This document shows, in pieces, positions 2,028 through 29,030 of a stretch of DNA of 64,000 nucleotides (positions are counted from its first letter, which is position 1; every line of letters begins with the position of its first letter). The translations under genes and the position numbers were made by a program. The stretch comes from Takakia lepidozioides. Its lineage: Eukaryota; Plantae; Bryophyta. The notes beneath the pieces were generated by a model that was not told the origin of the DNA, did not search any database, and saw only the letters and a list, made by a program, of their open reading frames with translations. Location: positions 62,434,001-62,498,000 of the forward strand of contig CM060731.1 in assembly GCA_030704615.1 (NCBI GenBank), written 5' to 3'.

Positions 2028-4529
2028 GCACTCTCACAGAGTGTAGCTGCCAGCCTGAACACCTCAGCCGGTCTTACCCCCGGCGTCGCAATCATGGTAG
2101 CCGAGAACAATGGAGCCTGGCACACAGATGTGGCCACTCCTAGTAGCATACTAGTTGCCGTAGCCTTGGCAACACTAGGTAGTGGTGCTACCCGTGTAAC
2201 TCTCCTCAATGGCATAGTAACCTCCGCCTCGGTAACAGTCGGGCGAGAACTAGGTGCCATGGATGGCGTCGACACTGTCTCTGCCAATGTGAATGACTGA
2301 GGAAGCCTAGCCTGACGGCTTGCCTCCCCACGCTGTGGATCCAACTCCACCTCTGCATCTCGTGGCTCAGGAACTCGTGCTGCTCCTCGAGTCACGGCTG
2401 CAACAGACTCCACCTGCACTAGTGGTAGTGCTGCTCCACACATGAATCCCATGCCTCCCATATCTCCTCCCTCAGGAGCAGGAGGTGGACCATCCGGCCT
2501 TAGAGCCGGTACCACCTGAGCTGTAGCCATGGCAGCGAGCCTCTACTCTAGCTGCTGAAGCCGGTTGGCCATGCCTTGGTCAACCCCCTGACCTCCGCGT
2601 CCTTGGCCATGTTGAGCTTGCCCTTGGCCTGCACCTCGTGGCTGGCCACCTCGTCCTCTCTGGGCTGCTCCACCTCGCCCCCGGCCACCATTGTTCCCTT
2701 GGAACTAGCTTGGGCGCAACTTAGGATGCAAACCATAACACTGGACCTCTCCATGCCCGTGCTTGCCACAATGCCCACACTGCAACTGTGCAGGCTGTGC
2801 ATGTGCCGGCCCTTTGCTTCCCTCTGGGCAATCCTTCTTGACATGGGGTCCTCCACATGTCCAGCACACCACATCCGCCCGTTGTTGGCCAGCAAATGAA
2901 GGGAGAGACCCCTGCATCTGAGGTCCTCTCTGCCCTTCCCTGAGCTTCACCTGAGCCCCCTTGTTGCCTTGAGCACGTTGAGGTAGTGGTTGGCTAGGAG
3001 CACCACTACCCCGTGGTGTCTCCTTAGCAAATCCCACCATGACCACTTGTTTCTCCACCATGTTGAGCTCTATCCGCTCTGCCAGCAAAAACACATTTGC
3101 TAAGGTGGGTTGGGCCGCTTGTAGGAGAGTTTCATCCCGCACCCTTCTCCTCAGCTCCTTGTCCAATATCCCATACCAGAATTGGACTGCCTGAGCTTCC
3201 GAAACCCCTTGGGTTACATTTATCAAGCGCCTCATGCGAGTGAAAGCCTCCCTCAAGCTCTTGGTCGGCTTCCATTGGAACTCTTGCAAGCTCCGCAACT
3301 TTTCTGTCCTCACCCCTTGGTAGTTCCCTCTCAACTCTTCGAAGAACTCCACAATAGGGTTGAAGGCAGGCACGGGTGCTAGTGCTGGTGCGGTAGTGGC
3401 TTGGGTGGACGTCGTAGCTACTGTACCACCAGTCCCACTAGTCCCACTGCTACTTGCTGAAGCTGTCGGTGCAGCGGCAGGTGTAGCCACTGCCCTCGTG
3501 GCTCTAGTGCCCCTAGTGATGAGACATAGTCGGGTGACCAGTACATCCTCCACTCCTCGATCTCAAACTCATGCCCCTGCCTGAACTCATGGTAATCATC
3601 CATAGGCGGCCCCTCAAGGTGCTGAAACAGCCCCTTCCATGCCATGAAAGGCGTAAATAGTTGTGGATTGCGCATTTGCTGCAAATCACACCAACTATCA
3701 AACTCTTGGATAAAATCATCCAACTCGATGGTGCCCACCGCCCCAGAGTACCTTCGTGGCCCCTTGGTAGCTCCATACATCTCCTCCATTGTGTCCCACA
3801 ACAATGGCAAAGAAACAACTTGCACCGCCAGTATGAGTCCTCCTGATTCACAATCCGAATCAGAACCTTCCGTAGAAGACACAGGAGGGCCTAAACCGCA
3901 CACCTCGTCTTGTGTACCCACTAGTATCGCTAGTGCTCGAACCGGCACTGTCCCCAGCAACTAGTGGCACCTCCGTGTTGACACTCAACCGGTCATGAAC
4001 ATGTCCCTAACCCCCTCTCCACAAGGTAACCGGATAGAGAACCTGTTGCGGCTTATGGTTTGGAATACTAAGTTCCTAACATAGCCTACACCTGTACCTG
4101 CATCCACCGCAAGCACTCCTATGGTTGGCTGGTCATCACCTCCAACCTCACCACAGGAGAAACAATGATGGTCTGGCTGGTCATCACCCCAGCCTCACCA
4201 TCGACAGCATGCTCTAGGACTGGCCGGTGATCAAATCCGGACCAATCACCTATAAAAATAGCGCCCACACAAAACTAGCATGGCGCACAGTCAAGCACGC
4301 AGGTATGGAGGGGATCCAAACACAAGAAATTAGAACGACAACTCCCCCACACCAAAAACAACTCCACGGTGTTGCTCCTGCAAGGACACCCCAGCCCAAA
4401 CCCGGACTGACTCTTGCCTCCACCTACAGAAAGGTCTTGGCCTAATGAGAGGGTGGAAACTACGAGGGAGAGAAGCTAAAGCAATGCCTAACCCCAACAT
4501 GCTCTCATCCCAACACTCTTCCTCTCCTC
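2028..4529 (-). mobile_element. Ty3/Gypsy copy A, inverted 5' segment (5' UTR, gag, start of the pol linker), decayed
   Basis: ORFs 3418..3960, 2705..3553 and 2024..2530 are collinear with gag of copy B. Zinc knuckles CWTCGGPHVKKDC and CGHCGKHGHGEVQC. UTR 4090-4440 matches 15355-15705. Confidence 0.9.
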
Positions 4530-7500
4530 AGGTTACTTCATCTTCTGCGGAGATAGTGGGAGGTGTAGTGCCAGAGGGATCCTCGGATTTGAGGGTCAAG
4601 ACTGCCACGGCGGCGCCATGGCAAGCTGCAACTGCCAGGTTGATGGAGCTGCTAGCTAGGCCAGCCATTGAGCGCGCCATGGTGACACCTGGAGTTGTCA
4701 TGTTAGACAACCAGGATGGCATTTTCTGTTTGAGTGGACCGGCAGGCAAGAGGTACCGGCCACTGCGGGTCTTGTTCGACTCGGGAGCTCAGCCATTGAT
4801 GCTAGGCAGAGCTGCTATTGCAGGCTTGGGCCTCACGGAGGCGGATATGGAGCCTTGTCCTTTCCAGATACAGACGTCTCTAGGAGGATTGGAGCAGGCT
4901 CGGGGCATGACACGGCGTGAATTGGCTATTAGACTACGGCCGGCTCACCCTACAGATGGCTCAGTGATGCGAGCCAAGGCCATTGTGACAGACGCGGTCT
5001 CATACGATGTCTTGGTTGGTGGGGCAGTGTTGTACCCCATGGGCTTCACCCTGGATTTTTGGGAGGAGTCAGCTTCCTATAGGCCTGCATGGCAGTCAGG
5101 GGAGGGCCGGCGTGTGCAGCTCCCTGTGACGTTCATAGGAGGAGTTGCGGTTGCCCAGCGAGGCAAGATGCCGACACTAGCAGTATTCAAAGCGGCAGTG
5201 AGTTGGCCTAGAGAGTTGCTTGAGGGCAACGCTCATTCAGAGGATGTCCCACCTCCGGGAGAGCAGGATGACATGTATGGTATGGCGGAGTTGCCTACCA
5301 TGGTTGCTCAAACTCCATTGTGGGGCACGAGCAAGGATTTGCAGCGGGATGCTGATCAACGGGTGCAACAAGCCTGGGTGGAGGCTTTTGTACCGTCAGA
5401 AGAGGAGGAGAGTGCGGGGATTGCACCAGGACCACCTCAGTTGTCTCCATTGGACACCACACCTATTGTATGGCAGTATCCGGATGAAGGCATTTGTCTT
5501 CTGGACTTGTTTGGCGGGATCAGCACCGGATTGGCTGTTGTGTTACAGACATGTGTATGAGTTCGGCGTTACCTGTATGTGGAGAGGGATGAGACTGCAC
5601 GACGCGTTTCACTTCGCCATGTTGCTCAGTTGGTGCAGCGGTACCCTGAGTTGTTGTCGGTGTCTGCAATTCGTGGATATCAGCAGACCTTGCCAACAGA
5701 CATTTCGTTGCTGGGGGCGCAGGATTTGGAGCGGGTTGGCTCCATTGATCTGGTAGTGGCAGGTTGGCCCTGCCAAGGGCATTCATTAGCCGGGCATGGC
5801 AATGGATTGCAAGACTCGAGGTCGGGTCTGTTTTGGGAGATGGTGCGGGTTTTGCGCCACTTACAGCTTCATCAAGCTGTATCTCCAGCATACATCTTGG
5901 AGAATGTGCCACTGATGGGCGATTATCGGGCCAGGGTGATGGCCAGTGTGCATCAAGTCCGGTCATGGCTTGGGTCAGCAGTGTTGCTAGATGCAGCTAC
6001 AGTGGGGTCACGGGCTCATCGTCCACGGCTATGGTGGACTAACTTAATGCCACCCGCACTGCTCAAGCGTGCATTTGATGGGGTACAGCGGCCAGCACAT
6101 CTCACAGTGGATAGCATTCTGGACACAGAAAGGCAGTCTCAGCGTGTGAGACACGATGACCATTCGCCTTTGGCAGTAGTCAACAAGGTGGGTCAACCAC
6201 GAGCAGCATTACCTACACTGCTCAGCTTCCCAGGATCGCATACTTTCCGGGATAGTGGACCTGGCCTCCTGTGGGATGCTCAGTTGCAGCAGTTAGTAGA
6301 GCCTAATGCTGACGAGCATGAGCGGGCAATGGGTTTTACCACTAGTACCACGGCGGTGTCGTCTCTTTTGAGGCATCACATCGTCAAGTGTTGGGGCAAG
6401 CAATGGATCTCAATTGCTTGACCTGGATTATCAGCTTGGCTCTGGCTGAGCAACGCAGAGTGCAGAGTACACTTCCCTCGATGGTCTCTCTGCCTACCGA
6501 GACGGTACAGGCAATGAGTGGGGGCGAGCATGTGAGGACCACGGGGTGCATGCATCCATGGCACACGTGGGAGGAGCTCGAGGTTCAGAGGGAGTTGGCA
6601 GCCAAGGCGGCTGTGATGGATGAGGTTGGGGATTCTTCTCGGGTTGAGGAGGTTCTCATGGATGAGATGATGGGGCAGGATGAGGCCTTGTCATTGACTG
6701 AGCAGGCAGGGAGTACTGCTTAAGAGGTTGCAACATAGCAACCACTGGACGTGTCCTCTACCTCTAAGCCCACTGGACTTAAGGTTTCAGTTACGGAGGA
6801 CAATTGGGAGCCTGACATTGGACCCATTGTCATCGGAGGAGAGAGACGACGTATACGGCGGTTCCTGAGGGTTTACAAGAATTGCTTTGCCTTCAGTTTG
6901 AAGGATTTGGGAGCACTGAAGGGTCAAGAGATCCGTATTGAGTTGGCCACTGACACGCCAATCTTTCGGAGACCCTATAGATACAGTGACATGGAGAGGT
7001 CTTTGATTCAGATGAGGACTCAAGATCTCTGGGAGGCAGGTTTGGTGGAGCTCTCTGGTGGAGAGTATGCTTCAGCCACAGTGATGCCAGCCAAGAAGGA
7101 TATCTATGGCAATTGGACGGAGAGACGTATGTGCGGTGATTACCGGCCTGTAAATCGTCAAACCAAGTCCGACAAGTATGCCATGCCAACACCAGAGGAG
7201 ATCTTTGATGCCATCGGGCATGCTAAGGCCTTTAGCACTTTGGATTTACGATCCGGATATCACCAGTTGCCAATCAAGGAGGCGGACAAGCAGAAGACGA
7301 CATTCTGGGGGATCAATGAGCACGGCAAGGATTGCCTATATCAGTGGCGGTTCTTACCATTTGGGCTTAAGAATGCTCCAGCAGAGTTTTCAGAGAGTCA
7401 TGGATAGGATTCTAGCAGGGGTGGACTTTGCTTGGTGCTACATAGATGACATCATCATCTTTAGTGTTACGATGGAGGAGCATGAGAGACACCTTCAGGT

Positions 7501-8268
7501 AGTATTGGAGCGCTTGAGAGCGCATGGATTGGGGGTACAGCAGACTAAGGTAGAGGCCATTGCACAAATTCCACGCCCCACGGATGTGAGCCGAGTTCGA
7601 GCTTTCATGGGGTTGGCAAACTATTATAGACGGTTTGTCAAGGGATTTAGGACCATTGCAAAGGCTCTAACCAAGTTGACCAAGGTGGACCAGGAGTGGC
7701 AGTGGGAAGATGAGCAGGAACGAGCTTTTCAAGAGCTCAAGGCGAGGTTGACCTCGGCGCCTATCCTGAGACGACCTATCAGGGGGCGTCCCTTTCAGCT
7801 GCATACGAATTGGAGCATGCTGGGGCTTGGAGCGGTGCTCACACAGGTGGATGATGAGGGAAGAGAGTTCGTAGTGGCTTATGCTAGCCGCTCGAACAAC
7901 GCTGCAGAGGCTAAGTACAGCTCATATGAGGGAGAGTGCTTAGCTGCAGTGTGGGCCGTGGCACACTTCAGGTGCTATCTATACGACAATCTTTTCACCC
8001 TTGTCACGGATCACCAGCCACTCAAGTGGTTGATGGAGTCAGACAAGCTTATGGGGAAGCTTGCACGGTGGGCACTCATACTCTAGGAGTATGACTTTCA
8101 GGTTGTGCATCGACCAGGTTTGGTCAATTGGGATGCGGATGGATTGAGTCGCAATCCATGCATGAGCCAGCAGGATGACACTGGAGCTCGGTGGCATGGT
8201 GAGACGGACGAGGAGATGGTGCCGAGATGGCACGCATCTGCATTTTTGTGTATCTTGGCATCGGGAGG
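4530..8268 (+). mobile_element. Ty3/Gypsy copy A, pol segment (PR-DNMT-RT-RNase H), decayed and truncated before integrase
   Basis: Protease LFDSGAQ; DNMT motifs DLFGG/GWPCQ/ENV; RT MCGDYR, LDLRSGYHQ, PFGLKNAP, YIDD; RNase H YEGECLA, TDHQPL. Stops at 5558, 6721, 6736 and 8084 plus frameshifts. Confidence 0.95.
5492..6430 (+). pseudogene. C5-cytosine DNA methyltransferase domain within copy A (stop at 5558, frameshift near 6365)
   Basis: ICLLDLFGGISTG, DLVVAGWPCQGHS, YILENV, AHRPRLWWTNL, EHERAMGF, LGQAMDLN. Confidence 0.9.
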
Positions 8269-8272
8269 TTAA

Positions 8273-8332
8273 CCAATCCCCATCCGGAACCATCTCAAGA
8301 GGTGGAGTCAAGCATCCCATATGCCAACCTCT
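8273..8332 (-). other. C-terminal half of a PHD finger directly downstream of the integrase (remnant after deletion)
   Basis: RGWHMGCLTPPLEMVPDGDW in ORF 8039..8353 matches the PHD pattern (F/W)HxxCLxPPLxxxPxGxW. Confidence 0.75.
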
Positions 8333-8333
8333 A

Positions 8334-9400
8334 CCCACCACGTATGGTAGCATACCTCAACGTATCACGGTGGTGTGCAATGGCAAGGTTCTCAAAAGCC
8401 ATTGGCATGACTTTCTTGAACAACTCTGCACGTTGCTCATATGCACGTGCCCACATATCCGGATCGTCAAGGTTAAGAACTGTAGCAGCTTCTCTGCGAA
8501 TGGATGTAGGCAAATCCGGCTCTCGGCCAAAGAGAAGAAAGTATGGTGAGAAGGAGGCAAGTGATGCTTGCTTGCTGAACCTGTAGCCCATGGCTAACCA
8601 GGGTAACTGAAGGTCCCAATCTCCTAGGTGTCCCTTCTGCAAGCCATACTTGCGCAAATCCCTCTTTACTGTCTGAACAACTCTCTCTGCCAAGCCATCG
8701 GTCTCAGGATGATCCCGAGAAGTGGTGCGGTGGTCTATCAAGGCCTTGTCACACAAAGCCTGAAACTCCCCCAAGAACTCTCTCCCTTGGTCCGTGAGTA
8801 CCTCAGCTGGAGCACCGAATCGGCTAAGCACACAATCCAAGAATGCATACGCAGCTCCCTCACTAGCTTTATCAGGCAATGGAACCAATTCAATCCACTT
8901 GGAGAAGTGCTCCACCATCACCAACACGTACTTGTTGTGGCACATGGTCAGTGGCAACGGCCCTGCGAAGTCAAGACTCCACCTGTAGCCCAATCCCATG
9001 ATCGAAAGAGGGTGCAATTGTGGAGTAGGGGCGTTGAATGAAGCACGCACCCTGTCACACACCATGCACCTAACCACAAATTGTTGCACCTCTGTGTGCA
9101 TACCACGCCACCAATACTGCCCCTGCAGTAGACTATGAGTGCGTCGCACCCCAAAATGCCCCAATTCCTCATGGGCATGCCGCACTAATCGTGCCCGCTG
9201 TGTTGGGTGAGGCACAATCCTCACTTGACCATCCTCCCACACTCGGAGTAGGTGTGTCCCCTCCCACTTGAACCTCTTGGTTCGTTGTAGGATCCGATCC
9301 CTCTCCTTGGCAGTCACAGTGGCTGCAGTGTCTCCAGTGCGGAGGTAGTCCAACACAACTGAATCCTCATGTATATCTTTGGCGCCACCTTGCTCATTGC
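8334..9400 (-). CDS. Integrase of copy B (HHCC zinc domain + DDE core), C-terminus deleted
   Basis: HEELGH...CMVC; WSLDFAG / LTDQGREF / GLAERVVQ. Confidence 0.93.
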
Positions 9401-9579
9401 TGGCCTCAGGGTCCTCAGACACTTGATCTACAGTCATCCCTGTTGCAGGTCCAACCTGGCCTTCCGCTGCCAAGATACACAAAAATGCAGATGCATGCCA
9501 TCCGGGCACCATCTCCTCGTCCGTCTCACCATGCCACCGAGCTCCAGTGTCATCCTGCTGGCTCGTGCATGGATTGCGA

Positions 9580-10951
9580 CTCAACCCATCTGCATTGCGA
9601 TTGACCAAACCCGGTCGATGCACCACCAGAAAGTCATACTCTTGAAGGATGAGTGCCTACCATGCAAGCTTCCCCGTAAGCTTGTCTGACTCCATCAACC
9701 ACTTGAGTGGTTGGTGATCCGTGACAAGGGTGAAGAGATTGCCGTATAGATAGCACCTGAAGTGTGCCACGGCCCACACTACAGCTAAGCATTCTCCCTC
9801 ATATGAGCTATACTTAGACTCAACAATATTGTTCGAGCGGCTAGCGTAAGCCATTACGAACTCTCTTCCCTCATCATCCACCTGTGTGAGCACCGCTCCA
9901 AGCCCCAACATGCTCCAATCTGTATGCAGCTGAAAAGAACGCCCCCTGATAGGTCGTCTCAAGATGGGCGCCGAGGTCAACCTCGCCTTGAGCTCTTGAA
10001 AAGCTTGTTCTTGCTCATCTTCCCACTGCCACTCTTGGTCCACCTTGGTCAGCTTGGTTAGAGCCTTTGCAATGGCACTAAATCCCTTAACAAACCGTCT
10101 GTAATAGTTTGCTAACCCCATGAAAGCTCGAACTCGGCTCACATCCGTGGGGCGTGGAACCTGTGCAATGGACTCTATCTTCGTTTGCTGTACCCCCAAT
10201 CCTCCAGGATATATCATGTGACCCAGATACTCAATCTGGTTGTGGAAAAACTTGCACTTGCCCGGATGTAACTTCAATCCGTGCGTCCTCAAGCGCTCAA
10301 ATACCCCCTGAAGGTGTCTCTCATGCTCCTCCACCATAGCACTAAAGATGATGATGTCATCTATGTAGCACCGAGCAAACTCCACCCCTGCTAGAATCCT
10401 GTCCATGACTCTTTGAAACTCAGCGGGAGCGTTTTTAAGCCCAAATGGTAAGAACCGCCACTGGTATAAGCAATCCTTCCCGTGCTCATTGATCCCCCAG
10501 AATGCCGTCTTTGCTTATCCGCCTCTTTGATCGGCAACTGGTGATATCCGGATCGTAAATCCAACGTGCTAAAGACCTTGGAATGCCCAATGGCATCAAA
10601 GATCTCCTCTGGTGTCGGCATGGCATACCTATCGGACTTGGTCTGACGATTTACAGGCCGGTAATCACCGCACATACGTCTCTCCGTCCAATTGCCATAG
10701 ACATCCTTCTTGGCTGGCATCGCTGTGGCTGAAGCATACTCTCCACCAGAGAGCTCCACCAAACCTGCCTCCCAAAGATCCTGAGTTCTCATCTGAATCA
10801 AGGACCTCTCCATGTCACTGTATCTATAGGGTCTCCGAAAGATTGGCGTGTCAGTAGCCAATTCAATGCGAATCTCTTGACCCTTCAGTGCTCCCAAGTC
10901 CTTCAAACTGAAGGCAAAGCAATTCCTGTAAGCCCTCAGGAACCGCCGCAT
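9580..10951 (-). pseudogene. Reverse transcriptase + RNase H of copy B (frameshift near 10510, stop at 9657)
   Basis: MCGDYRPVN, LDLRSGYHQ, YIDD, KCKF, YLGH; RNase H TDWS, EGECLA, TDHQPL, NADGLSR. Confidence 0.95.
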
Positions 10952-11293
10952 ACGTCGTCTCTCTCCTCCGGTGACAATGGGTCCAATGTCAGGCTGTCAA
11001 TTGTCCTCCGTAACTGAAACCTTAAGTCCAGTGGGCTTAGAGGTAGAGGACGCGTCCCGTGGTTGCTATGCTGCAACCTCTTGAGCAGTACTCCCTTCTT
11101 GCTCAGTCAATGACAAGGCCTCATCCTGCCCCATCATCTCATCATTGAGAACCTCCTCAACCCGAGAAGAATCCCCAACCTCATCCATCACAGCTGCCTT
11201 GGCTGCCAACTCCCTCTGGACCTCGAGCACCTCCCACGTGTGCCATGGATGTCTACACCCCGTGGTCCTCACCGGCTCGCCCCCACTCGCTGC

Positions 11294-13777
11294 CTATACC
11301 GTCTCGGTAGGCAGAGAGACCATGAAGGGGAGTGCACTCCGCACTCTACGTTGCTCAGCCATAGCCAAGCTGATAATCCAGGTCAAGCAATTGAGATCCA
11401 TTGCTTGCCCCAACACCTGACGCCGTGATGCCTCAGAAAGAGAAGGCACCGCCGTGGTCCCAGTGGAAAACCCCATAGCCCACTCTCGCTCGTCGGCATT
11501 AGGCTCCACTAACTGCTGCAACTGAGCATCCCACAGGAGGCCAGGTCCACCATCCCGAAAAGCATGGGATCCTGGGAAGCTGAGCACTGTAGGTAATGCT
11601 GCTCGTGGTTGACCCACCCTGTTGACCACTGCTAAAGGCAAACGGTCATCGTGTCTCACACGTTGAGACTGCCTTCCTGTGTCCAAAATGCCATCCACGG
11701 TGAGGTGTGCTGGCCGCTGCACCCCATCAAATGCACGCTTGAGTAGTGCGGGTGGCATCAAGTTAGTCCACCAAAGCCGTGGACGATGAGCCCGTGACCC
11801 CACTGCAGCTGCATCCAGCAACACTGCTGATCCAAGCCACGACCAGACTTGATGCACACTGGCCATCACCCGGACCCGAGAATCACCCATCAGTGGCACA
11901 TTCTCCAAGATGTATGCTGGAGATACAGCTTGATGAAGCTGCAAGTAGCGCAAAATCCGCACCATCTCCCAAAACAAACCCGTCCTCGAGTCTCGTAATC
12001 CATTGCCATGCCCGGCTGATGAATGCCCTTGGCAGGGCCAACCTGCCACTACCAGATCAATGGAGCCAACCTGCTCCAAATCCTGCGCCCCCAGCAAGGA
12101 AATGTCTGCTGGCAAGGCTTGTTGGTATCCACGAACTGCAGACACTGGCAACAAGTCAGGGTATTGCTGTACCAACTGAGCAACATGGCGCAGTGAGACG
12201 CGTCGTGCAGTCTCATCCCTCTCCACATACAGGTAACGTTGAACTCGTTCACCTGCCTGCAGCACTGCAGCCAATCCAGTGCTGATCCCGCCAAACAAGT
12301 CCAAAAGGCATATGCCTTTATCCGGGCACTGCCACACAAGAGGTGTGGTGTCCAATGGCGACAACTGGGGTGGTCCTGGTGCAATCACCGCACTCTCCTC
12401 CTCTCTTGACGGTACGAAAGCTTCTACCCAAGCTTGTTGCACCCGTCCATCAGCAGCCTTCTGCAAATCCTTGCTCGTACCCCACAATGGAGTGTGAGCA
12501 ACCATGGCAGGCAACTCCGCCATACCATGCATGTCATCCTGCTTTGCTGGAGGTGGCACATCCTTTGCATGGGCATTGCCCTCCAGCAATTCTCCAGGCC
12601 AACTAACTGCAGCTGTAAAGGCGGCTAGTGTTGGCATCTTGCCCCGCTGGGCAGCCACTATACCCCCAATGAATGTCACAGGGAGCTGTGCACGGCGATC
12701 ATCGCCTGACTGCCATCCAGGCCTGTAGGATGTTGACTCCTCCCAAAAGTCCAGGGTGAAGCCCATGAGATATAACACTGCCCCACCAACGAGGACATCG
12801 TAAGAGATCGCGTCTGTCACAATGGCCTTGGCTCGCATCACTGAGCCATCTCTAGGATGATCCGGCTGCAGTCTAATTGCCAATTGATGCCGTGTCATGC
12901 CCCGAGCCTGCTCTGACCCTCCCAGAGATGTCTGTATCTGGAAAGGACAAGGCTCCATATCCGCCTCCATGAGGCCCAAACCTGCAATAGCAGCTCTGCC
13001 CAACATCAGTGGCTGAGCTCCCGAGTCCAACAAGACCCGCAGTGGCCGGTACTTCTTGCCTACCGGTCCACTCAAAGTGAAAATGCCTCCCTGGTTGTCT
13101 AACAAGACAACTCCAGGTGTCACCATGGCGCGCTCAAAGGCTGGCCTAGCTGGCAGCTCCGTCAACCTGGCAGCTGCAGCTTGCCATGGCGCAGCCATGG
13201 CAGTCTTGACCCTCAAATCCGAGGATCCCTCTGCCACTATACCTTCCACTAACTCCGCAGAAGATGAAGTGACCTCCCCACTCTCACAGAGTGTTGCTGC
13301 TAGTCTGAACACTGCAGCTGGTCTTACCCCCGGCGTCGCAATCATGGTTGCTGAGAACACTGGGGCTTGATACACAGAGGTGGCTGCCCCCAATAACATA
13401 CTGGCTGCACTAGCCTTGGTAGCAGGTGTCAGTGCTGCACGTGTAGCTCTCCCCAATGGCATAGTAACCTTCGCCTCGGTAACAGTCGGGCGAGAACTAG
13501 GTGCCATGGATGGCGTCGACACAGTCTCCGCCAATGTGAATGACTGAGGAAGCCTCGCCTGACAGCATGCCTCCCCACGCTGTGGATCCAATTCCACCTC
13601 TGCACCTCGTGGCTCAGGAACTCGTGCTGCTCCTCGAGTCATGGCTGCAGCAGACTCCACCTGCACTAGTGGTAGTGCTGCTCCGCACATGAATCCCATG
13701 CCTCCCATATCTCCTCCCTCAGGCGTAGGAGGTGGACCATCCCGCCTGGGAGCTGGTACCGCCTGAGCTGTAGCCAT
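11294..13777 (-). CDS. Uninterrupted 827 aa protease + C5-cytosine methyltransferase segment of the copy B polyprotein (DNMT domain ~11376-12313)
   Basis: Aspartic protease VLLDSGAQ...YDVLVG. C5-MTase motifs I (LLDLFGGISTG), II (YVERD), III (ADI), IV (GWPCQ, catalytic Cys at 12032-12034), V (DSRTGLFWE), VI (ENV), VIII (AHRPRLWW), IX (EREWAMGF), X (LGQAM). Confidence 0.92.
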   Translation of the reverse strand: MATAQAVPAPRRDGPPPTPEGGDMGGMGFMCGAALPLVQVESAAAMTRGAARVPEPRGAEVELDPQRGEACCQARLPQSFTLAETVSTPSMAPSSRPTVTEAKVTMPLGRATRAALTPATKASAASMLLGAATSVYQAPVFSATMIATPGVRPAAVFRLAATLCESGEVTSSSAELVEGIVAEGSSDLRVKTAMAAPWQAAAARLTELPARPAFERAMVTPGVVLLDNQGGIFTLSGPVGKKYRPLRVLLDSGAQPLMLGRAAIAGLGLMEADMEPCPFQIQTSLGGSEQARGMTRHQLAIRLQPDHPRDGSVMRAKAIVTDAISYDVLVGGAVLYLMGFTLDFWEESTSYRPGWQSGDDRRAQLPVTFIGGIVAAQRGKMPTLAAFTAAVSWPGELLEGNAHAKDVPPPAKQDDMHGMAELPAMVAHTPLWGTSKDLQKAADGRVQQAWVEAFVPSREEESAVIAPGPPQLSPLDTTPLVWQCPDKGICLLDLFGGISTGLAAVLQAGERVQRYLYVERDETARRVSLRHVAQLVQQYPDLLPVSAVRGYQQALPADISLLGAQDLEQVGSIDLVVAGWPCQGHSSAGHGNGLRDSRTGLFWEMVRILRYLQLHQAVSPAYILENVPLMGDSRVRVMASVHQVWSWLGSAVLLDAAAVGSRAHRPRLWWTNLMPPALLKRAFDGVQRPAHLTVDGILDTGRQSQRVRHDDRLPLAVVNRVGQPRAALPTVLSFPGSHAFRDGGPGLLWDAQLQQLVEPNADEREWAMGFSTGTTAVPSLSEASRRQVLGQAMDLNCLTWIISLAMAEQRRVRSALPFMVSLPTETV

Positions 13778-13792
13778 GGCAGCGAGCCTCTA

Positions 13793-15085
13793 CTCTAGCT
13801 GCTGAAGCCGGTTGGCCATGCCTTGGTCAACACCCTGACCTCCGCGTCCTTGGCCATGTTGAGCTTGCCCTTGGCCTGCACCTCGTGCCCGACCACCTTG
13901 TCCTCTCTAGGCTGGTCCACCTCGCCCCTGGCCACCATTGTTCCCTTGGAACTGGCTTGGGCGCAACTCAGGATGCAAGTCATAACACTGGGCATCTCCA
14001 TGCCCATACTTGCCACAATGCCCACACTGCAACTGTGCAGGCTGTGCTTGTGCCGGCCTTTTGCCACTCTCTGGGCAATCTCTCTTGACATGGGGTCCTC
14101 CACATGTCCAACATATCACCCCTGGTTGCTGTTGGCCTGCAAAAGATGCCACGGGCCTCTACACCTGAGGTCCCCTGTAAGCTCCATGGAACTTGGGTTG
14201 GGAAACCTTGCCCCCCTGACCACGCTGTTGGGCAGTCCCTTGTGCCTGTGGGCTGGCAGCTGCGTCTCGTGCAGGCATGTCTTTGCCAAATCCAATGGTA
14301 ACAACTCGCTCCTCCACTATGTTGAGCTCAATCCGCTCAGCCAGCAGAAACACATCTGCTAATGTGGGTTGGGCTGCTTGTAACAGGGTTGCATCCCGCA
14401 CCCTTCTCCTGAGCTCCTTGTCCAAAATTCCATACCAGAACTGGATTGCCTGAGCTTTAGTAACCCCTTGGGTCACACTTATCAAGCGCCTCATACGAGT
14501 GTACGCCTCTCGCAGGCTCTCATTGGGTTTGCGCTGGAAGTCTTGCAAACTTCGCAGCTTCTCTGTCCGTACACCTTGGTAGTTCCTCCGCAACTCCTGG
14601 AAGAACTCCACCACCGGGTTGAATCTAGGCACATGTGTTGTAGTTGTGGCAGGAGGAGTAGTAGCACCTTTTGAACTGGTACCACCTGCAGAAGTACCGG
14701 CACTACTTGTTCCACTACTAGTGCTGGCAGTGGGAGATATTGGTACTGATGCAGCTACTGATCGCGTCGTGCCTCGAGTAATGGAGACATAGTCAGGTGA
14801 CCAATACATCCTCCACTCCTCAATCTCTGCTTCATGTCCTCGCCCGAACTCGTGGTAATCGTCCATAGGCGGGCCTTCCAAATGCTGGAACAGTCCCTTC
14901 CACGCCATGAATGGGGTGAATAGCTGTGGATTGCGCATCTGCTGCAAATCACACCAGCTGTCGAACTCCTGGATAAAGTCATCCAACTTGATTGTGCCCA
15001 CAGCTCCAGAGTACCTACGAGGCCCCTTGGTAGCTCCATACATTTCCTCCATGTCGTCCCACAACAATGGCGAATGAAACTGCAC
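13793..15085 (-). pseudogene. gag: gag of copy B (capsid-like region plus two CCHC zinc knuckles); frameshift near 14155 and stop at 13907
   Basis: LDDFIQEFDSWC capsid-like block; CWTCGGPHVKRDC and CGHCGKYGHGDAQC; RGG-rich tail. Confidence 0.85.
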
Positions 15086-15787
15086 ACCTGTTGATGAAGC
15101 CTCCGAGTCTGTGTCTGACTCTGCACTAGTTGAGGATGGAGGTGAAGGTGGTCTGAAACGAACACCTCATCTGGTGAAACCACTCTCACTGCTACTGCCT
15201 GTAGCCGTACTCCCTTCAGAACCCCTGGGTAACTTCGTGATGACACTCACAATGTGCACCTCTCCCACGTGACACTATAAGGCTCTATTACTAATTCTAA
15301 TAGTGACACGGGTAGGCACCTGTTGCAGTTTAAGGGTCATATCCCAGTGGCTCAGGGCACCTGCACCTGCATCCACCGCAAGAACTCCTATGGTTGGCTG
15401 GTCATCAACCCAGTCTCACCATAGAAGAAACACTGGTGGTCTTGCTGGTCATCACTCCAGCCTCACCACCGACGGCATACTCTAGGATTGACCGGTGATC
15501 AAATCCGGCCTAATCCCTATGAAAGCAAGTGCCCACACAAAACCAACATGGCCCACAGTCAAGCATGCAGGTGTTGGGGGGGATCCAAACACAAGAAATC
15601 AAAACATCAACACCCCCACACCAAAATCCATCTGCAGTGCTGACCTGCAGAATATCCCAGCCCAAAACCCTGGACTGACTGGCCTCCACCAAGAGAGGCT
15701 TTGGCAACCACAAGTACAAGGTAATGAAAATAGTACATAGATGGAGGGGAAGAATAGAAGCTCGACCCAACAAGATCTAATCCTGAT

Positions 15788-16594: not shown

Positions 16595-17568
16595 AGAATT
16601 GTGGACCTTTCATAGCACACTCACACTCTAAAAATTCCATAGATTTTTAGCAGAGTCCCAAAAACAAAAACCAGGTCTAGATAGGTAGATATCCCCTTTC
16701 TGCAACTATCCCCCCAAAAACTGGGTCAAACAGAGTCCATTTGACAAAGATATGACCAACCAGGCTCTTTATACATTTAAATTAGATCAAAAAGGCTTTT
16801 ATTTTTATTTTTAACACCAAAACATTCTCACCATTAAAAATTGTTCCCAGGTTATCTACGGGTTCCGAACAGGTAGTTCTATGCTGTTTTGGGGTCGCCT
16901 CGCCATTACCATGGAGCAGCTCGATTTGTTAAACTCCAATCGGCTTCTCCTCCATGATGGACCGCGTTGCCGCTTCGTCATCCCTCAGCTGCATTTGTTC
17001 AGTTATCCGTCCCATGTACTTATCACTGCTGACTCTCAGGTCGTTTCCTGTAAGTTCTAGCTCGCATGGAGGGAGATTGGTGGCAGCCTGCACTTCAACT
17101 CGATTGCCAGACCATGTCTTGAGGTCTCTGTTACACTCTCCACCCTTTCTTCCACTGATTACTTTGATGCTTGATTTCAATGATTGATCACGCATCCAAT
17201 CCGTCCGTTGCTCTATGACCAGTATGGGGCCGACTGCTCTTGTTTCCTCCTGAATCGCTCATATATCTCCGAAACTCACACTTAATCCACTCTCAGCCTT
17301 GATCTGTTGATGTGACCTTTTGTGTGTCGTATCTGTAGGTCATTTGTTCCTCCAAAAATCGTGCAGTTGAGTAATCTGTGTGATCTGCAACTGGTCTGAT
17401 TTCCACACACTTGGAGCATTGGCCAATTAGAGCATGACGAGTTCCTTCAGCCCTTCTTCCCTGCTACAAGACCTGACGGGCGAGAAGGTCAGCTCCTATC
17501 ACCTTATCAATTACCCAAGGGTACCAAAGTGGGCCCAGTATCTGGCCTCTCTGTAACGCCACATCACA

Positions 17569-17858
17569 TAGTCATCAGGCAGTTCCCTGGCCCGGGCTCG
17601 GAGCTCCGTTACCTCATCAAAGAAACTTTCCGATGAAGCTTCAGGAAGGAAGTCCTGGGGTTGCCAGCACTTGTCTACGGGCTTCAAAAGGGGTAGCAAA
17701 TTCTCTTGCGCCCAGTTGTCCAAGGAACCGATAACCTTCAATTTCTCAATGGGGATCTCTCGAGCACTTTCTTTGTTCCACTCCTGGTAGGGTGTGAGAA
17801 CTTTGTGAGGTCCAGGGTTCACAGCTAGATTTGTCTTCCTGTGACAACGTAAGGCCAT
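17569..17858 (-). pseudogene. SAD: Stearoyl/acyl-ACP desaturase, 5' fragment cut by the retrotransposon
   Basis: SLDNWAQENLLPLLKPVDKCWQPQDFLPE...ELRARARELPDDY is the conserved SAD N-terminal core. Homology ends abruptly at PDDY, where TGTGATG begins. Confidence 0.88.
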
Positions 17859-20384
17859 GGTGCACTATGATAGACATAATGAGCATGATGGGACTGAGGC
17901 AATATAACTCGAAGTTAGCTAGAATAACTCCCTACTAGTAGAAACACCACCAGCGTGAATAACTCGGCATAAGGGCCCCGCAACACTGCTCACAGGCACG
18001 TACCCGCTTGAACCTAGCTTGTGTGTTAAGTTTCAATTCTGCCAGCGTCTCCACAAGGGACATGCACAACCCCAGGAAGTTAAAACGACGACTCTACTAC
18101 CTTTGCACTTTCCTGAACCGTTTCCCGTTGAGGCTCCTCTGGTTAGAGTCCAAGAGCCTCAATCCCAACGGAAGCAGCAGTTTGAAGCCAGATTTGCATC
18201 AGCGACCAACCATGCAGCGCAGTTTACCTTCGCAAAGGCTGAGAGATCCACTTACACCCCCCGGTTATCCTCCCAACGGATGCTTTCCTGACTATGATTG
18301 TAAGTGTCATCACGGTCAATGTCTTCCGACAGAATATGATCGAACCGAGAGCTAGACGGTAGTATTGGCAGACCACGGGACGAGTTCGAAATCATGAACG
18401 TGTACAAGCCAGGCCCTGCAAGAATCCCAGCATATACACGCAGTGGTGTAACAAGCCCCCTCACACAGGTGCTAGGCAGGCTGGTGAGGTTCAAGCCACA
18501 CACAAATAGCCTGAACGGCTCAGCACCCACTGCCAACGAAACTCTGGAGCGCCTCCAAGTCGCCAATATAAATCAAGCCCAGCCAGCCCAAACGGGGGAT
18601 TCCGACCAATGGTCTTTCTCGCGTTGCAGCACGAGTGCCCTCATAAACTGAGCACGGCAGGCCTCCTTGTCTCCTAGGCTGATTATTGTTGGCTTTGAAC
18701 TGTTGCAGCAACACTTCAAATGGTCTCCGCCTTCCTGTACAGCTCCACTCGGCACACAGCCAATCTGACTGCAGGCTCCCTGTGAGCTTAAGGTTGTGGG
18801 TTCAAACCACCGTCTGGTGTGTCATGAAGGTGTCCACCTTTCAGTTGGAAGGCAATAGCCCTTCAGGGTCAAGAGACACCATAAGTTACACTTCCATAGG
18901 GAGGCGTCTCATATATATATATATATATATGTTTGGCTCTGTCCCGTAAGGGATAGAGCCATTGTGGAGACTTCTTGCCTAGACGAAGCTAGGTAGAGAA
19001 CGGAGAACTAGTGTGGTGTGAAAAAAAAGGGCAAAACATTTCCCCACGACATTCACTTCAAGTCACCAGAGTACCATTCCGTCCCACCCATGCCGCAGCG
19101 GGAGAGAAGACATAGGTAGGACACACATCCGTCACAAATAAACAACTGCCTTGCATGTGATCTCGCATACTGCAAACACCCAGCATAGCTTTCACAGATT
19201 CCCCCTTGAAAGGTGGGCCTTGCCCGTGAAGAGCCGTCACCCTCTTGTGTTCATGGCACCCCGTCAGACAGCCTAATCGAACTACCCGAGCCTACCCGGC
19301 ATCCGCTCATTTTCTCTCACTCCCTCTCATCTTTTACCTCTCGAGTCCAAGGGTCATAGATCCAAATACACTCGTGAGTTACACACAAGCTACGGGTTCG
19401 ACTGATCTTCTGGAAACAAACAAACGACAATGCTGCCACTGTACAGATGCACCCTAATATTCTATCTATGCAATGTGGAGTCTCCACACTAGGCGGTTTG
19501 AGTGATGCACTACATACATGCCCTGATTTCCCAGCTATTGCACCCACACCCTTTACATGCTCAAACTGACCAGAGCTGCAATCAGACTTCCCTCATGGCA
19601 ACAATGCAGGAACGAATGCATCATGCAAGTGCGATTCCAGACACAAAAACGAAGCAATGACCCAATCAGTCGATTTTTACTTCTTCATCATCATAGTCCT
19701 TCCTCTACACAAAAATACCGAGCCTGGAGCTTAAAGCACAAGCCTCTCGTTCACGTCACCATCACCACCTCCACTTCACCACCTCCACTTCACTACCTCA
19801 CTACCATCTCCGAAAAGCAAGAAGAAGCACTATATCCAGCTAACCAAAAGAAGAAGAATCTTCTCACAAAAACTTCCTTAAAATCCAAACCCCACTTGCC
19901 TGTGTAATTACTACACCCGCAGCTCCTATAGTCGACAACATCAACTAGCTCTGGCTGGAAACTAACTCAGCCGTCATAGCGGATACTGACTAAGGAACAG
20001 GAAAGTAAATCACAGCCAAAAACTAAGGCACACTGGCTGATGCTGCCAACACCAACATAGAAAACAGTAGAACTACACCGCTGCAATGGACGGAATCCCC
20101 AAAATTATGTATCCACAAGTCAATGGATTATTGTCTACCAATCACAGAGCTTCAAGAAATTACAAACCAAATCTATACACAAAAGAGTTGGGATGGCAGC
20201 AAAATTTAGTACAAACATGACTGGGCTAGCCATGAGAAACGATTGAAAAGAAGCCAACTTTTCTAAATTCTCACCCCCATTCTGCTCTCTGGCTCTAATA
20301 TGTATGCATTTGAAATGCCAACCGTCCACTCAAACCAATAGCCCCCATGGAGTATTCACTCTGGCTGCTTCATGTTTAATTCAA

Positions 20385-23629: not shown

Positions 23630-26600
23630 TGTATATTGCATTCTGTAAGGTAGCTCGTTGGGTGGATTTGTGGTGGTTTGGAATGACTATGACAAGTCAC
23701 TGCCAATGTGGCAACAGGAAAGTATCCAAAACAGATAACAGAGATGAGGAGAAGGTGTGGAATGAATTTTTGTTGACCTCGGTGAATGGTGGGACAACCC
23801 AGGCAAAAAGTTGAATGCCTATTAGATGACAGAGAGTATCAGACGCAATTCAGCATATGAACTAGTGTGATTGGGTGTTTCCTAGGTTGTCATTGTCAGC
23901 TGCTAGCAGCAAGGGCAAAGATGAAGGAAGGATTTGTGCAGAGGCATGGATAGCTGAAGGAGAAGGGATAGAGTGTGGGTCCAAATTCATCCAAGAGGGC
24001 CGGACTTCAAGCTCCAGATTACCTGTGATTCCATGTGGATCAATAGCTACAAGAAACCTAAATGGGTAGATGGCCAACTAAAAGCAGCAGCTGCAGCGGC
24101 ACAGTTGATAAAATTGGGCACCTCAACCATGACAGCAGCTTCTCAAAGAGGATCTAAAGAGGGAGTCCACAATGCCTCTTCTGCGGGGCTTGTGAAGATG
24201 CTTTGTGAGGCAGGCAGACTGACAAAGGCTCTATAGACTTTAAACCAATGAGACATTTCAGCAGATTCAGATATGTATGTTTGTCTCTTGCTTAAGTGCA
24301 AGGTCTGGAAGCTGGAATCAGGTGCACCCTCACATTATCCAAAGTGGATTCATGCCAAATGTTTTTTCTACTCAACAGCCTTGTCAACTTACTTAGTGCG
24401 AGAGCATCATGGATGCTCGCTAGTCTTTTTCTACAGAATGCCTTAGCGATCTTTGAGCACGTGGAATATAATGTTGGCAGGATTTACCAAGCATGGGTGT
24501 GGTAGGAATGCTTTGGAGACCTATGAACAAATGCTGCGCAAAAGGGTGAAGCCCAACCACATCACGCTTGCGCATGTTTGCAATGCGTGTGCAAGCCTGG
24601 GACCTCTGGAGAAGGGAAAGTGGTCCATGGTGACATCGTCAAAGCTGGAATTGTACCAGATGTCATCCTGAACACTGCCCTGGTGGACGTCTATGCCAAA
24701 TGTAGGTGCATTAAGGATGCGAAGGGAGTTTTCAACACTATGGTTGAACCAAATGTGGTGTCATGGAACGCGATGCTTGCAGGGCATGCACAGCAGGGAC
24801 ATGGTATGGAGGCTTTGGAGACCTATGATCAAATGATGGGGAAAGGGGGGCACCTTCTTCAATAGCACAGCAACTATAAGTGGGTAGATGGTCAACTGGA
24901 AACAGCAACGGCAGCAGCACAATTGATAGAACAAGGCCCACTGCTAATGAATGTACCTTCTTTAACATATTTCACCTTGTTTTCCCTTGCTATCAGTGTC
25001 GTCCCTAAATTTTCATGTTGAATTCTGCAAGTTAGCTCGTTGGTGGATCTATGGTGGTGTTGGAGTGATTTTGACATGTTACTGCCAATGTGGTCCACAG
25101 GAAAGTATCGAAAAACAGATAACAAAGATGTGGAGAAGCTCTGGAATGAATACGTCTCCAACCCAGTCAATGGTGGAACAATCCAGGCAAAAAGGTGAAT
25201 GTTGTTGGTGCAAGCCAGTATAGGAACTAGTGCGGTAAGTAGGGTTGCCCGTGTTTGCTGGAACAATTCTAGGGTATTATTGTCGGCTGCTAGCGTCAAG
25301 GCAAGGATGTATGCATGATTTGTGCAGAGGCATGGATAGCTGAAGGAGCAGGGAGCAGTGTGGGTCCAGATTCATCCAAGAGGGCCGGATTTCAAGCTCT
25401 AGATCACCTACAATTCCTGTGGAAGCAGTACATACGTCACACACACAAGAGGTCCTCTTGTGTGCATGGTCAGTCAAATCCTCCATGTGTCATGACAGAA
25501 GGTCGAGAACAATGTCGCACCTTCTTCTTCGATCTATTTCAGCCTATTTTGCCCTCTCATCAGACTCAACTTTTAATTTATTGAATGCTGTAAGTTAGCC
25601 CGTTGGGTGGATCTGGGGTGGTTTGGAGTGACTTTGACAAGTTACTGCTGATGCGGTAGCAAGAAAGTACCCAAAAACAGATAACAAGATGAAGAGAAGC
25701 TTTGGAATGAACACTTTTCTGATCCCAGTCAGTGGGGGGACAATGGAGACAAAAAGGTGAGTGCTTGACCGACTACAGAGAAAAGCAGTTGCAATTCAGA
25801 ATTGGAACTACAGTTAAGTAGGGTTGGGGTGTTTTCTGGAAGAACTTCACGCTGTCAGTGTCAGCTGCTAGCAACAAGGCTGAGAGATGTATTCATGATC
25901 TGTACACAAGCAGGGATAGCTGAGGGACCAAGGATAGAGGTCCAGATTCATGTTCAGGCTCAGGCTGAGGGATCAATAGCTACAAGAAATCAGCTGGAGT
26001 AGATGAGTCAATTGTTGCAAGTGGAAACAGTAGTGCTACTATCACAATTGATAGAATGAGGTATTGCTAATGAAGGCACCTTCCTCAACACATTTCAGCC
26101 TGTTTTTCCAAGTAGGGTTGGGGTGTTTGCTAGAACAAATCTAGGCTGTCATTGTCAGCTGCTAGCAGCAAGGCAATGATGTATGCAGAGGCATGGATAG
26201 TTGAAGGAGCAGGGATAGTGTGTGGGTGCAGATTCACCCAAGAGGGCTGGGCTTCAAGCTCCAGATTGACTCTGTAGCTACAAGAAACCTGCATGGGTAG
26301 ATGGTCAATTGGCAGCAGCGGCACAATTAATAAAATCAAACAGTGCTAATGAAGGTATCTTCTTCAACACATTTCACCTTGTTTTCCCTCTTATCAGAAT
26401 CGCCCTAAATTTCCATGTTGAATTCTGCAAATTAGCTGCTTGAGTGAATCTAGTTTGGAATGACTTTGACAAAATACTGCCAATGTGACAACAGGAAAGT
26501 ATCAAAAAACAAGTAACAGAGATGAGGAGAAGCTGTGGAATGAATACTTTTCTGCCCCAATCAATGATGGGACAACCGAGGCAAAAAGGTGAATGCCTGT

Positions 26601-26870
26601 TACATTTCAGATAGTAGCAGACACAATTCAGCATAGGAACTAGTGTGATAAGCTAAGTTGGGTGTTTCCTACAACAAATCTAGGCTGTCATTGTCAGCTC
26701 CTAGCAGCAAGGCAAGGATGAATGCTTGATTTGTGCAGAGGCATGGATAGCTGAAGGAGCAGGGATAGAGTGTGGGTGCAGATTCATCCAGAGGGCCAAA
26801 TTTCAAGCACAAGATTACCTATGATTCCATGTGGATCAATGGCTACAAGAAACCTCCATGGGTAGATGGT
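23630..26870. repeat. Array of ~4-5 diverged copies of a ~570 bp unit, interrupted by a PPR fragment
   Basis: Blocks such as 'caggaaagtatc-aaaacagataaca', 'gtcattgtcagctgctagcagcaaggc', 'gcagaggcatggatagctgaaggag' and 'tgggtagatggtc' recur (e.g. ~24063, 24881, 26293, 26859). Confidence 0.85.
24075..24850 (+). pseudogene. PLS-class PPR gene fragment (N-terminus plus about one PLS triplet)
   Basis: VKMLCEAGRL, TWNIMLAGF, NTALVDVYAKCRCIKDAKGVF, VSWNAMLAG; stops and frameshifts. Confidence 0.85.
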
Positions 26871-27080
26871 CTATTCCGTGGAGCTCAATCTGTCACTGAA
26901 GTCTTGCATTATGAGGATCACAACTACTTCGCAGCTTACTTGCATGAGGCCTTAACTCTTACGCAATCCCCAGAGCAGTAGTAGCTTTTGGGCTGCTTTT
27001 TTACTTTGGTTTTTTCATTTTGTCCCATAAGCTCTTTGAGCTTTCCGCAGATGTAATAAAGTACCATTTTGTTTCATTTT
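26868..27080 (+). mobile_element. 5'-truncated copy of the (CATTT)n-tailed LINE family
   Basis: GLFRGAQSVTEVLHYEDHNYFAAYLHEALTL* then cccataagctc..gagctttccgc..ataaagtaccattt. Confidence 0.75.
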
Positions 27081-27289
27081 GTTTCATGGCATGTCTTCCA
27101 TCGTTTTCGCATTTCAAATGCATGATTAGTTCTCTTGTATGGCATTGAGAGGGCAAAACAGGCTGAAATAGGTCGAAGAAGAAGGTGCCCTTACCACATT
27201 GTCCTTGACAATTCAATATGCATCTCAGGGCCAAGTCTGGTGAGAGGGAAAAACAGGCTGAAATCGAAGAAGAAGGTGCCCTCACCACA

Positions 27290-28112
27290 TTCTCCAAGGC
27301 CTCCATACCACGCCCCTGATGTGCACACCCTACAAGCATCATGTTCCACGTGATGAATGATCGTTGAGGCATTCTGTTGAACACTTGGTGAGCATCCATG
27401 ATGCACCCGCACATAACATACATGTTGAGTAGAAAAATATTTGGCGTGCACTTTGGATACTGTGAGTGTGCACCTGCTTTAGCTTCAAGGCCTTTCATCT
27501 TGATGCACTTATGCAAGAGACAGACATACGTATCTGAATCTGCTGAAATGCCTCCTTGGTTTAAAGTCAGTAGAGCCTCTTTCAGTCTGCCTGCCTCACA
27601 AAGCATCTTCACATGCCCATAAGTGCCAGAAGAGGCATTGTGGACTCCCTCTCTTGATCCTCTTCCAGAAGCTGTGGTCATGGTTGAGGTGCCGGATTTT
27701 ATCAACTCTGCCGCTGCAGCTGCTGCCTTTGGCGATGCAACCATGCACCTCTTTGCATCTGGTAATCTGACAGGCATTCACCTTGGTTAATTCCAGCTCT
27801 GAAGATGTCGCCATGGACCTCTTTCCCCTTTTCCAAAGCTGCCAGGGCAGTGTTCAGATTGACATTTGGTACAATTCCGGCTTTGATGATATCCCCATGC
27901 ACCTCTTTGCCCTTCTCCAGGGCTGCCAGGCTTGCACAAGCATGGCAAATGCACACAAACATGATGTGCTTCCCCCATCATTTGCTCATAGGTCCAAAGC
28001 CTCCATCCCACGTCCCTGCCGTGCATACCCTGCAAGCATCGCCTTCCACGACACCACATCTCGTTCAGCCATAGTGTCGAACACTCCCTTTGCATCCTAG
28101 ATGCACCCTGAT
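27290..28112 (-). pseudogene. PLS-class PPR fragments, inverted and permuted paralog of 24075-24850
   Basis: KAAAAAAELIKSGTSTMT...VKMLCEAGRLKEAL...ADSDTYVCLL; ACASLAALEKGKEVHGDIIKAG with a local duplication. Confidence 0.85.
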
Positions 28113-29030
28113 TTTGCCAGCTGTGTCCCATATCTGTCAGATGCAGAACTCCAAAAGATAAGAAAATAATGACGAGTCCAAAATCTGTTCAGGGGAGCCA
28201 ATCAGAGAGCAATTTTTTTCTCTCTCTCTCTCTCTCTCTCTGCCTCTCTCCCTGTCCTCTAGGAAGCCTATTGACATTGGGTGGACTTGATACGGGAGTA
28301 CATTAATGTCTCTGTGACTAAATGCCGGCCTTGTGACCTCGTGTCCTTGTTTGTTTCGACCTGAAGCGCTTTGCTTCAGGTAAGGTAGTGCATTGGATTT
28401 AGTTGGAAAGCTTGGGGCCTTTCCCTCTTTAGAATATGCCTACACGGGCCATTCCCTGCAACTCCCTGGAGTGTGATCTCTGAATGGTAACAAGCGGACT
28501 CCTACCGCTTGGGGGCAGCCCCCCCGCCCAAATTGGGCAGTCGTATGCTCTGTCTAGCATACTCGGCACTTGGGCTCGGGTTGGTTCCTGTGCTTAAACT
28601 TATAGCCTGCGAGAACAATCAAAATTTTAGCTCCTATCAACATCAACACTCCTCAGGGTGATCCCTGGGAATTGGTTACTTATGCCAAATCTAGGGCTTC
28701 ATGTGTAGTTTTTGGGGTGAATCCCAGGATGGACGATGTGTCCTTTAAAACTACATGCTCTAGCTTAGGCTTGGATTTCATGGCTAATGGTACCATCTCC
28801 AGACTTGATAACAGGGGTACGTTGAAGGTTGCAATGACCAAAAGTGCTTCTAATAGAGTCCCACATCAATTCAATCTCAAAGAAGTTCGTCCCTTGACTG
28901 GCTGGAGAGCGGTCTTAGACATTGGTGATTCAATGGGGCGCTCTAGGAAGACAACCAAGGGCAACGACTTCAACTTGAGAGTTTCTAATCGGTTTGATGC
29001 TCTGGATGAGGTTGAATCCAAACAGCCAGA

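Follow-up and report, generated by a model that had tools for sequence, protein, structure and literature searches.

The sequence at 8270-8332 is a genuine remnant of a PHD finger. It once capped the integrase of a Ty3/Gypsy retrotransposon, now dead, that carries a DNMT3-like DNA methyltransferase. It lies within a 64,000 nucleotide stretch of the Takakia lepidozioides genome (the window), in which a dead element is present twice, the two copies joined by their tails. Copy A, on the minus strand, runs from about 15696 to 8270. The features concerned are as follows:

2029..4529, minus strand: gag-containing 5' part of copy B, which lies inverted against the pol part of that copy; identity to copy A is 79% over 2029-4430
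4530..8269, plus strand: protease, DNMT, reverse transcriptase (RT), RNase H and integrase start of copy B, 91-92% identical to copy A
6736..6744, plus strand: TAG-CAA-CCA between DNMT and RT of copy B
8267..8274, no strand: tail-to-tail junction of copies B and A, breakpoint 8269/8270, with palindrome GGTTAACC and no filler
8270..8332, minus strand: latter half of a C4HC3 PHD finger, with His, Cys, LxPPL and PxGxW but without the first four and last two Cys
8331..9656, minus strand: integrase of copy A with H2C2 zinc domain and rve core, cut short behind YATIRGG
8333..8334, minus strand: deletion junction, 317 bases gone (integrase C-terminal beta-barrel, linker, first PHD half)
9657..10996, minus strand: RT and RNase H of copy A, disrupted by stops and a frameshift
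11060..11068, minus strand: TAG-CAA-CCA of copy A, a stop in predicted readthrough context between DNMT and RT
11294..13789, minus strand: protease of copy A and its DNMT3-like C5 methyltransferase, which has the motifs LFGG, GWPC, ENV and RPR
13958..15166, minus strand: Gag region of copy A, frameshifted

The order RT, RNase H, integrase is that of Ty3/Gypsy elements, and a close relative matches the Gag-Pol of Ty3 with E 2.5e-14. The methyltransferase, which matches PF00145 (E 2e-12), is intron-less and non-permuted, with catalytic motifs in the normal order. Among sequences with solved structures its best match is DNMT3A (E 3e-9), followed by DRM (5e-5) and HhaI (7e-4), and the domain was placed with DNMT3 by this best PDB match, by PF00145 and by motif order. 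The two copies differ by 188 transitions and 80 transversions in 3005 columns (raw counts).

The 5' part of copy B has been cleanly inverted, with about 3 bases lost at the break, and inverted or tail-to-tail pieces are also found in several relatives (L056, L060-L062, L075); such pieces may reflect frequent rearrangement in this KnitGypsy-Dnmt3-like element family. Just outside the inverted part lies a GC-rich tandem repeat array (1243-1861) that is unmatched in copy A or in the loci collected from relatives. Elsewhere in the window are a broken LINE-like element (28606-33293, plus strand) with endonuclease-like and RT-like frames recognised by eye, and two PPR genes (34892-36925, minus strand; 56452-58929, plus strand), one with a DYW-type end, together with decayed PPR fragments at 24000-28200 (by eye). 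Pieces of host genes occur at 17511-17864 (minus strand) and at 48521-49072, 52333-53464 and 60102-60548 (plus strand); they comprise an acyl-ACP desaturase (Pfam E 1.7e-18) and frames resembling, by eye, a RecG-like helicase, a protein kinase and cytochrome b5.

On the minus strand, the integrase reads DTLRYATIRGG up to position 8334, followed by the single base 8333 and then, in another frame, by RGWHMGCLTPPLEMVPDGDWL (8332-8270). This fragment scored 28.7 bits (E 3e-10) against a profile built from 156 complete fingers of relatives, which is family-specific by construction; with the same profile, the next best spot in the six frames of the window reached 0.5 bits and 20 shuffled sequences at most 4.0 bits. 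Pfam PF00628 alone gives a weak match to the 21 residues (E 0.05, 14.1 bits at a cut-off of 24). Of the eight zinc ligands, the window copy retains just the His and one Cys.

The missing sequence is present in one contig of run X9 (same species label; 1205 letters), which matches 8270-8333 exactly, shows 9 differences from 8334-8700 and has 317 further letters between these two parts. The deletion has therefore taken the integrase tail and the first four Cys of the finger; it is real and specific to this copy. It shifts the frame, and the junction itself creates the stop (8333-8331) that ends the integrase frame. The length fits 105 codons plus 2 bases, as the His is the 110th residue past YATIRGG in 24 of 35 complete fingers; these were taken from the best 120 of 229 integrase homologues, 101 of which reach the end of the integrase. 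A Sphagnum fallax protein (P0053) has lost 29 residues in frame, and there, too, the deletion starts at the IRGG with which the integrase ends.

An earlier note, made from the letters of the window, had proposed both the half finger in a shifted frame after the integrase and a deletion of the integrase tail with the first half of the PHD. The profile match bears out the former, the X9 contig the latter. Beyond that note, we found the finger to be cut on both sides, its last Cys pair having been lost at the copy B junction (8269/8270). Loose contig ends pile up at 8269-8270 and 8329-8335 in all four runs. A contig of 57 letters crosses 8269/8270 without differences, with 27 and 30 letters on its two sides, which is under our 31-letter bridging rule, and no contig bridging 8333/8334 was present among those listed. 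In view of these two limits, a local assembly error at the junctions is rated as no more than unlikely.

The fragment is short, lies between two breakpoints and has a Pfam E-value of just 0.05, so it could be suspected of being junction filler derived from an unrelated host gene, which the earlier note had named as a ground for refutation, or a chance match. We regard either origin as extremely improbable. The X9 contig has fragment and integrase in the correct order, 317 bases apart, and on this contig host-gene filler was rejected. Contigs at a depth of more than 20,000 carry identical pieces of the PHD fragment, as compared to a depth of 76 for the contig at the tail-to-tail junction, and homologous fingers follow the integrase in relatives.

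In the latter, the combination of integrase and PHD is the rule, as had been predicted for intact elements. With an integrase-only query (best 120 of 219), a PHD was found past the integrase in 112 of 120 long proteins, and in 110 of 112 where there was room for it; this also answers the objection that other copies might lack a C4HC3 motif at this position. At the DNA level, a PHD was present in 68 of 69 loci that extend far enough past the integrase, and a DNMT in 27 of 31 that have 800 bases upstream of the RT, in a set (80 kept of 278) that is biased, having been picked with PHD-bearing queries, and in which some loci repeat one insertion. The HMM scan suggested by the earlier note, run downstream of the integrase of the intact relative L043, detected PF00628 with E 2.6e-10; a chromovirus by domain was rejected, with no Chromo match at E 0.1 in the second frame of L043. 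All eight Cys4-His-Cys3 ligands occur in the relatives (151 distinct fingers). Values of dN/dS for the finger were 0.05-0.40 in 6 of 8 between-family pairs, the remaining two being saturated; judged from such comparisons, the finger is under purifying selection in the relatives.

Close relatives that could be named are from Calypogeia, Marchantia, Riccia and Sphagnum; together with the PPR genes and their DYW-type ends, they give the window the look of DNA from a seed-free land plant. The chlorophyte Haematococcus is among the named carriers of both DNMT and PHD. In 153 long proteins the DNMT is located either before the RT or between RNase H and integrase, with the PHD after the integrase. 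The integrase tree holds 59 proteins with the DNMT after RNase H and 13 with the DNMT before the RT, most of them with a PHD; the trees (FastTree, midpoint-rooted) have weak deep support, and no order of events was drawn from them. DNMT and PHD are found together far more often than apart. DNMT elements lacking the PHD include P0129, P0130, P0132 and P0140; a branch with Closterium records retains the DNMT and has no PHD at its end. A PHD without DNMT occurs in P0234, P0235, P0241 and P0246, each of them represented by one record and perhaps a copy that suffered a deletion. Two proteins of Tetrabaena socialis (P0265, P0266) have a decayed DNMT remnant between RNase H and an intact integrase-PHD.

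In the branch with the DNMT after RNase H, the end of the DNMT precedes the integrase by a median of 135 residues (61 proteins), and 59 proteins (P0133, P0136, P0141, P0195, P0196, P0243 and others) continue for more than 250 residues past the PHD. This extension shows a weak match to Tudor (best E 3e-4 among 13 scanned) and a SAM-methyltransferase-like domain, with a DPW/FxGxG-type motif in 20 of 59 and an Atlas score of 0.95 to phage SAM methyltransferases. Split repeats of the form A...B-A-B were seen in 4 of 20 self-compared loci (L005, L008, L037, L073), for example at L005:1768-2074 and 10378-10971; a G-rich purine tract precedes B, the ends are CA, and several copies terminate directly after the first B, at CA. 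The window copies have lost their 3' ends.

As to what the finger would bind, the position two residues before the His (His-2), which we take to be that of the aromatic-cage tryptophan in H3K4me3 readers, is occupied by Gly in 142, Ala in 8, Pro in 1 and Trp in 0 of the 151 fingers. In PHD fingers that read H3K4me3 (ING, BPTF, TAF3) the cage is described as needing an invariable Trp (PMC3241642), and an H3K4me3 reader was rejected on this count. At the head of its best 60 PDB sequence matches are CHD4, PHF12, KDM5A/B PHD1, BHC80, ATXR5, DPF, UHRF1, AIRE and BAZ2, the best being readers of unmodified H3; ING, BPTF, TAF3 and PYGO do not occur among these 60. The third Cys is preceded by a hydrophobic residue and, in 144 of 151 fingers, followed by Asp, and the residues of PxGxW are kept in 129, 123 and 136. 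A predicted model of L043 (mean pLDDT 83) adopts a PHD fold, at 0.7-1.4 A to several solved fingers, including 0.8-1.4 A over 47-57 columns for those of BHC80, ATXR5 and BAZ2A. No ADD domain was present among the sequence and fold matches listed; the finger is a plain C4HC3 PHD. Upstream of it the model has five predicted strands in a barrel, presumably SH3-like; among the Foldseek matches listed, no integrase C-terminal domain occurred, and whole-length Tudor-PHD matches were at rmsd 12-15 A.

Residues that hold Ala1 and Arg2 of H3 in solved complexes are conserved in chlorophyte, charophyte and bryophyte relatives, and the finger likely binds the N-terminus of H3. The class that recognises unmodified H3K4 (BHC80, AIRE, CHD4) is described as having no cage, acidic residues ahead of the first Cys and a hydrophobic one ahead of the third, and it is with the acidic residue that BHC80-type fingers read unmethylated Lys4 (PMC3241642). 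Within the window's branch just 1 of the 10 fingers carries such an acidic residue, as against 104 of 144 in other branches, which makes sensitivity to Lys4 uncertain. A search for a histone H3 gene in the window and the loci gave none, apart from one chance match.

Another feature conserved in relatives is the stop codon between DNMT and RT. Intact L043 has 1369 codons for Gag-protease-DNMT and 1047 for RT-RNase H-integrase-PHD, all in one frame and parted by a single stop (with its context at L043:5083-5091). In 37 of 39 rows, a stop is located 38-49 codons upstream of the RT (31 TAG, 5 TAA, 1 TGA); there were 42 rows, three of them dropped for too little upstream sequence, and the rows share descent, some representing one insertion, though synonymous sites between families are near saturation. 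The stop is followed by CAR-YY in 34 of 37 and by the full CARYYA in 10, spelled CAACCA, CAATCA or CAGTTA, with a background of 0.26% in the window. CARYYA is known to signal readthrough in retroelements (PMC3441728). In L043 the first Met past the stop comes at residue 117, already within the RT. In 24 of 37 cases the stop is followed by CAA-CCC or CAA-CCT, one base off the consensus, with a Met close behind (also in L042, at residue 14), so that restart or splicing are possible there. In four proteins (P0152, P0184, P0238, P0245) there is no stop, and DNMT and RT share one open frame. Four RNA folds of the sequence behind the stop (run without controls) gave no sign of a conserved structure. 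The sequence context suggests that the stop is likely leaky. Read through at a low rate, it would yield DNMT at the level of Gag and PHD only together with Pol, thus placing the DNMT in a different and more abundant protein than the PHD.

PHD-bearing Gypsy elements and Gypsy elements with DNMT3 are already known, having been published separately. The latter are KnitGypsy-Dnmt3 of Klebsormidium nitens and streptophyte Gypsy-DNMT3, with a DNMT3-like domain in the Gypsy Pol region (PMC5890265; bioRxiv 10.64898/2026.05.21.726589), and the K. nitens proteins P0002, P0115 and P0184 are direct homologues. Relatives studied here have split repeats A...B-A-B, which have likewise been reported from KnitGypsy-Dnmt3 and described for DIRS. 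In KnitGypsy-Dnmt3 the DNMT lies in the open frame of the RT (PMC5890265), whereas in the window's branch a conserved stop separates the two within the same frame; the host there is the alga K. nitens, here a land plant. The word PHD has 0 occurrences in the searched text and supplements of PMC5890265, although Fig. 4c of that paper may draw the finger. Gypsy-7a_cRei from Chlamydomonas has a Gypsy polyprotein with a PHD, for which a targeting role was proposed (PMC9940879). It inserts between genes 2.6 times more than expected by chance, which according to the authors may be due to selection; its legend gives no methyltransferase, we liken it by domain content, and REM1 is also PHD-bearing (PMC9940879). 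More generally, PHD fingers in retrotransposons have been called widespread (PMC6673714; bioRxiv 2021.11.30.470311; PMC8557442).

Chromoviruses likewise have a histone reader at the C-terminus of a Ty3/Gypsy integrase, with the same proposed job, but they read H3K9me by a chromodomain, whereas the present elements have a zinc PHD with the unmodified H3 end as predicted ligand (PMC6317226). EpiLTRs combine a chromatin reader with DNA methyltransferases in one LTR element; those of Cymbomonas and Euglena use a chromodomain, DAM and a DNMT4-related enzyme instead of PHD and DNMT3-like enzyme (bioRxiv 10.64898/2026.05.21.726589). Section 7 of that preprint describes five lineages, none with the architecture RT-RNase H-DNMT3-integrase-PHD-Tudor-second methyltransferase. 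Among the hits listed in full-text searches of the open literature, we encountered no report of DNMT3 together with an integrase-PHD, of the leaky stop, or of the algal-type branch that has DNMT3, integrase, PHD, Tudor and a second methyltransferase. Animal DNMT3A/B are alike in providing the best solved methyltransferase match and in having a reader of the unmodified-H3 class (for the present finger a predicted one), but their ADD adjoins the catalytic domain, while here ADD and PWWP are lacking and the PHD sits on the integrase, beyond the stop.

Of several possible explanations for this arrangement, we favour, as a reasonably probable one, that the integrase is held to H3 tails by the finger, with a bias in where it inserts, and that an abundant, packaged DNMT methylates the cDNA or the new copy of the element. 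The protease would free an integrase-PHD protein, the finger of which would bind the free H3 N-terminus (Ala1, Arg2) and not H3K4me3, and so keep insertions off active promoters, in the manner of the chromodomain in chromoviruses. Packaged DNMT would methylate the element's own cDNA or new insertion, a role that de Mendoza et al. (PMC5890265) proposed in 2018 for retrotransposon DNMTs. Reader and writer would work in parallel for one element, not as a single allosteric enzyme. This explanation builds on features read from sequence: the order Gag-protease-DNMT, stop, RT-RNase H-integrase-beta-barrel-PHD, the deletion, the purifying selection and the lack of a cage Trp.

The earlier note had gone further and drawn a parallel to the ADD-plus-catalytic logic of animal DNMT3. 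It is borne out that a DNMT3-like enzyme and a PHD share one element; the parallel is weakened by the conserved stop, by the RT, RNase H and integrase in between (about 1,100 residues in the window's branch) and by relatives that lack one or the other domain, including a whole branch that keeps the DNMT without PHD. In such a process the PHD would recruit or activate the DNMT3 at chromatin with unmethylated H3K4, in the uncleaved readthrough product or in the intasome, and the element would methylate its landing site. The finger resembles the unmodified-H3 class, to which the ADD belongs, and the pairing is old and common (the 59 and 13 proteins of the integrase tree). Yet the finger is a plain C4HC3 PHD, and it stays at the end of the integrase wherever the DNMT sits. 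PHD and DNMT are thus probably not one enzyme, and we consider ADD-like coupling improbable overall. It is most plausible in the branch with the DNMT after RNase H, where the short distance to the integrase makes a DNMT-integrase-PHD protein possible. Slightly less improbable, and still unlikely, is a role unrelated to targeting, with the finger stabilising the intasome, serving general chromatin retention or binding a non-histone host partner, while insertion preference is unaffected. Some PHD fingers are reported to bind non-histone proteins (PMC3241642), and the window's branch is without the acidic Lys4 pocket; against this, the residues holding H3 Ala1 and Arg2 are conserved from chlorophytes to bryophytes, and one branch works without the finger.

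Returning to tethering with methylation of the new copy, a finger that targets integration would be a second solution, beside the chromodomain, to the problem of reaching safe chromatin. A leaky stop would mean that methyltransferase is spent at the level of Gag protein. This would favour a DNMT acting within the particle on cDNA of its own element, and the role of retrotransposon DNMTs would be directly testable in Marchantia or a moss. A much broader reading, which we put forward only tentatively and hold to be rather unlikely, is that a superfamily of the green lineage, from chlorophytes to land plants, carries a self-contained epigenetic kit in which an integrase PHD reading the H3 tail would pick the site and the DNMT3-like enzyme would methylate the new copy or target. 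Land-plant members would make DNMT at Gag levels via the leaky stop, while in the algal type the DNMT would lie beside the integrase, with a Tudor-like reader and a second methyltransferase of the amino type as additions; reader-guided de novo methylation like that of animal DNMT3 would then have evolved inside a transposon.

High-copy mobile DNMT3 genes could make DNMT3 seem too numerous in annotated genomes of bryophytes and ferns. The remnant as such is dead, and the interest rests on the family-wide anatomy more than on the window copy: the remnant marks a large and old family, in seed-free plants and algae, that pairs a histone reader with a de novo methyltransferase.
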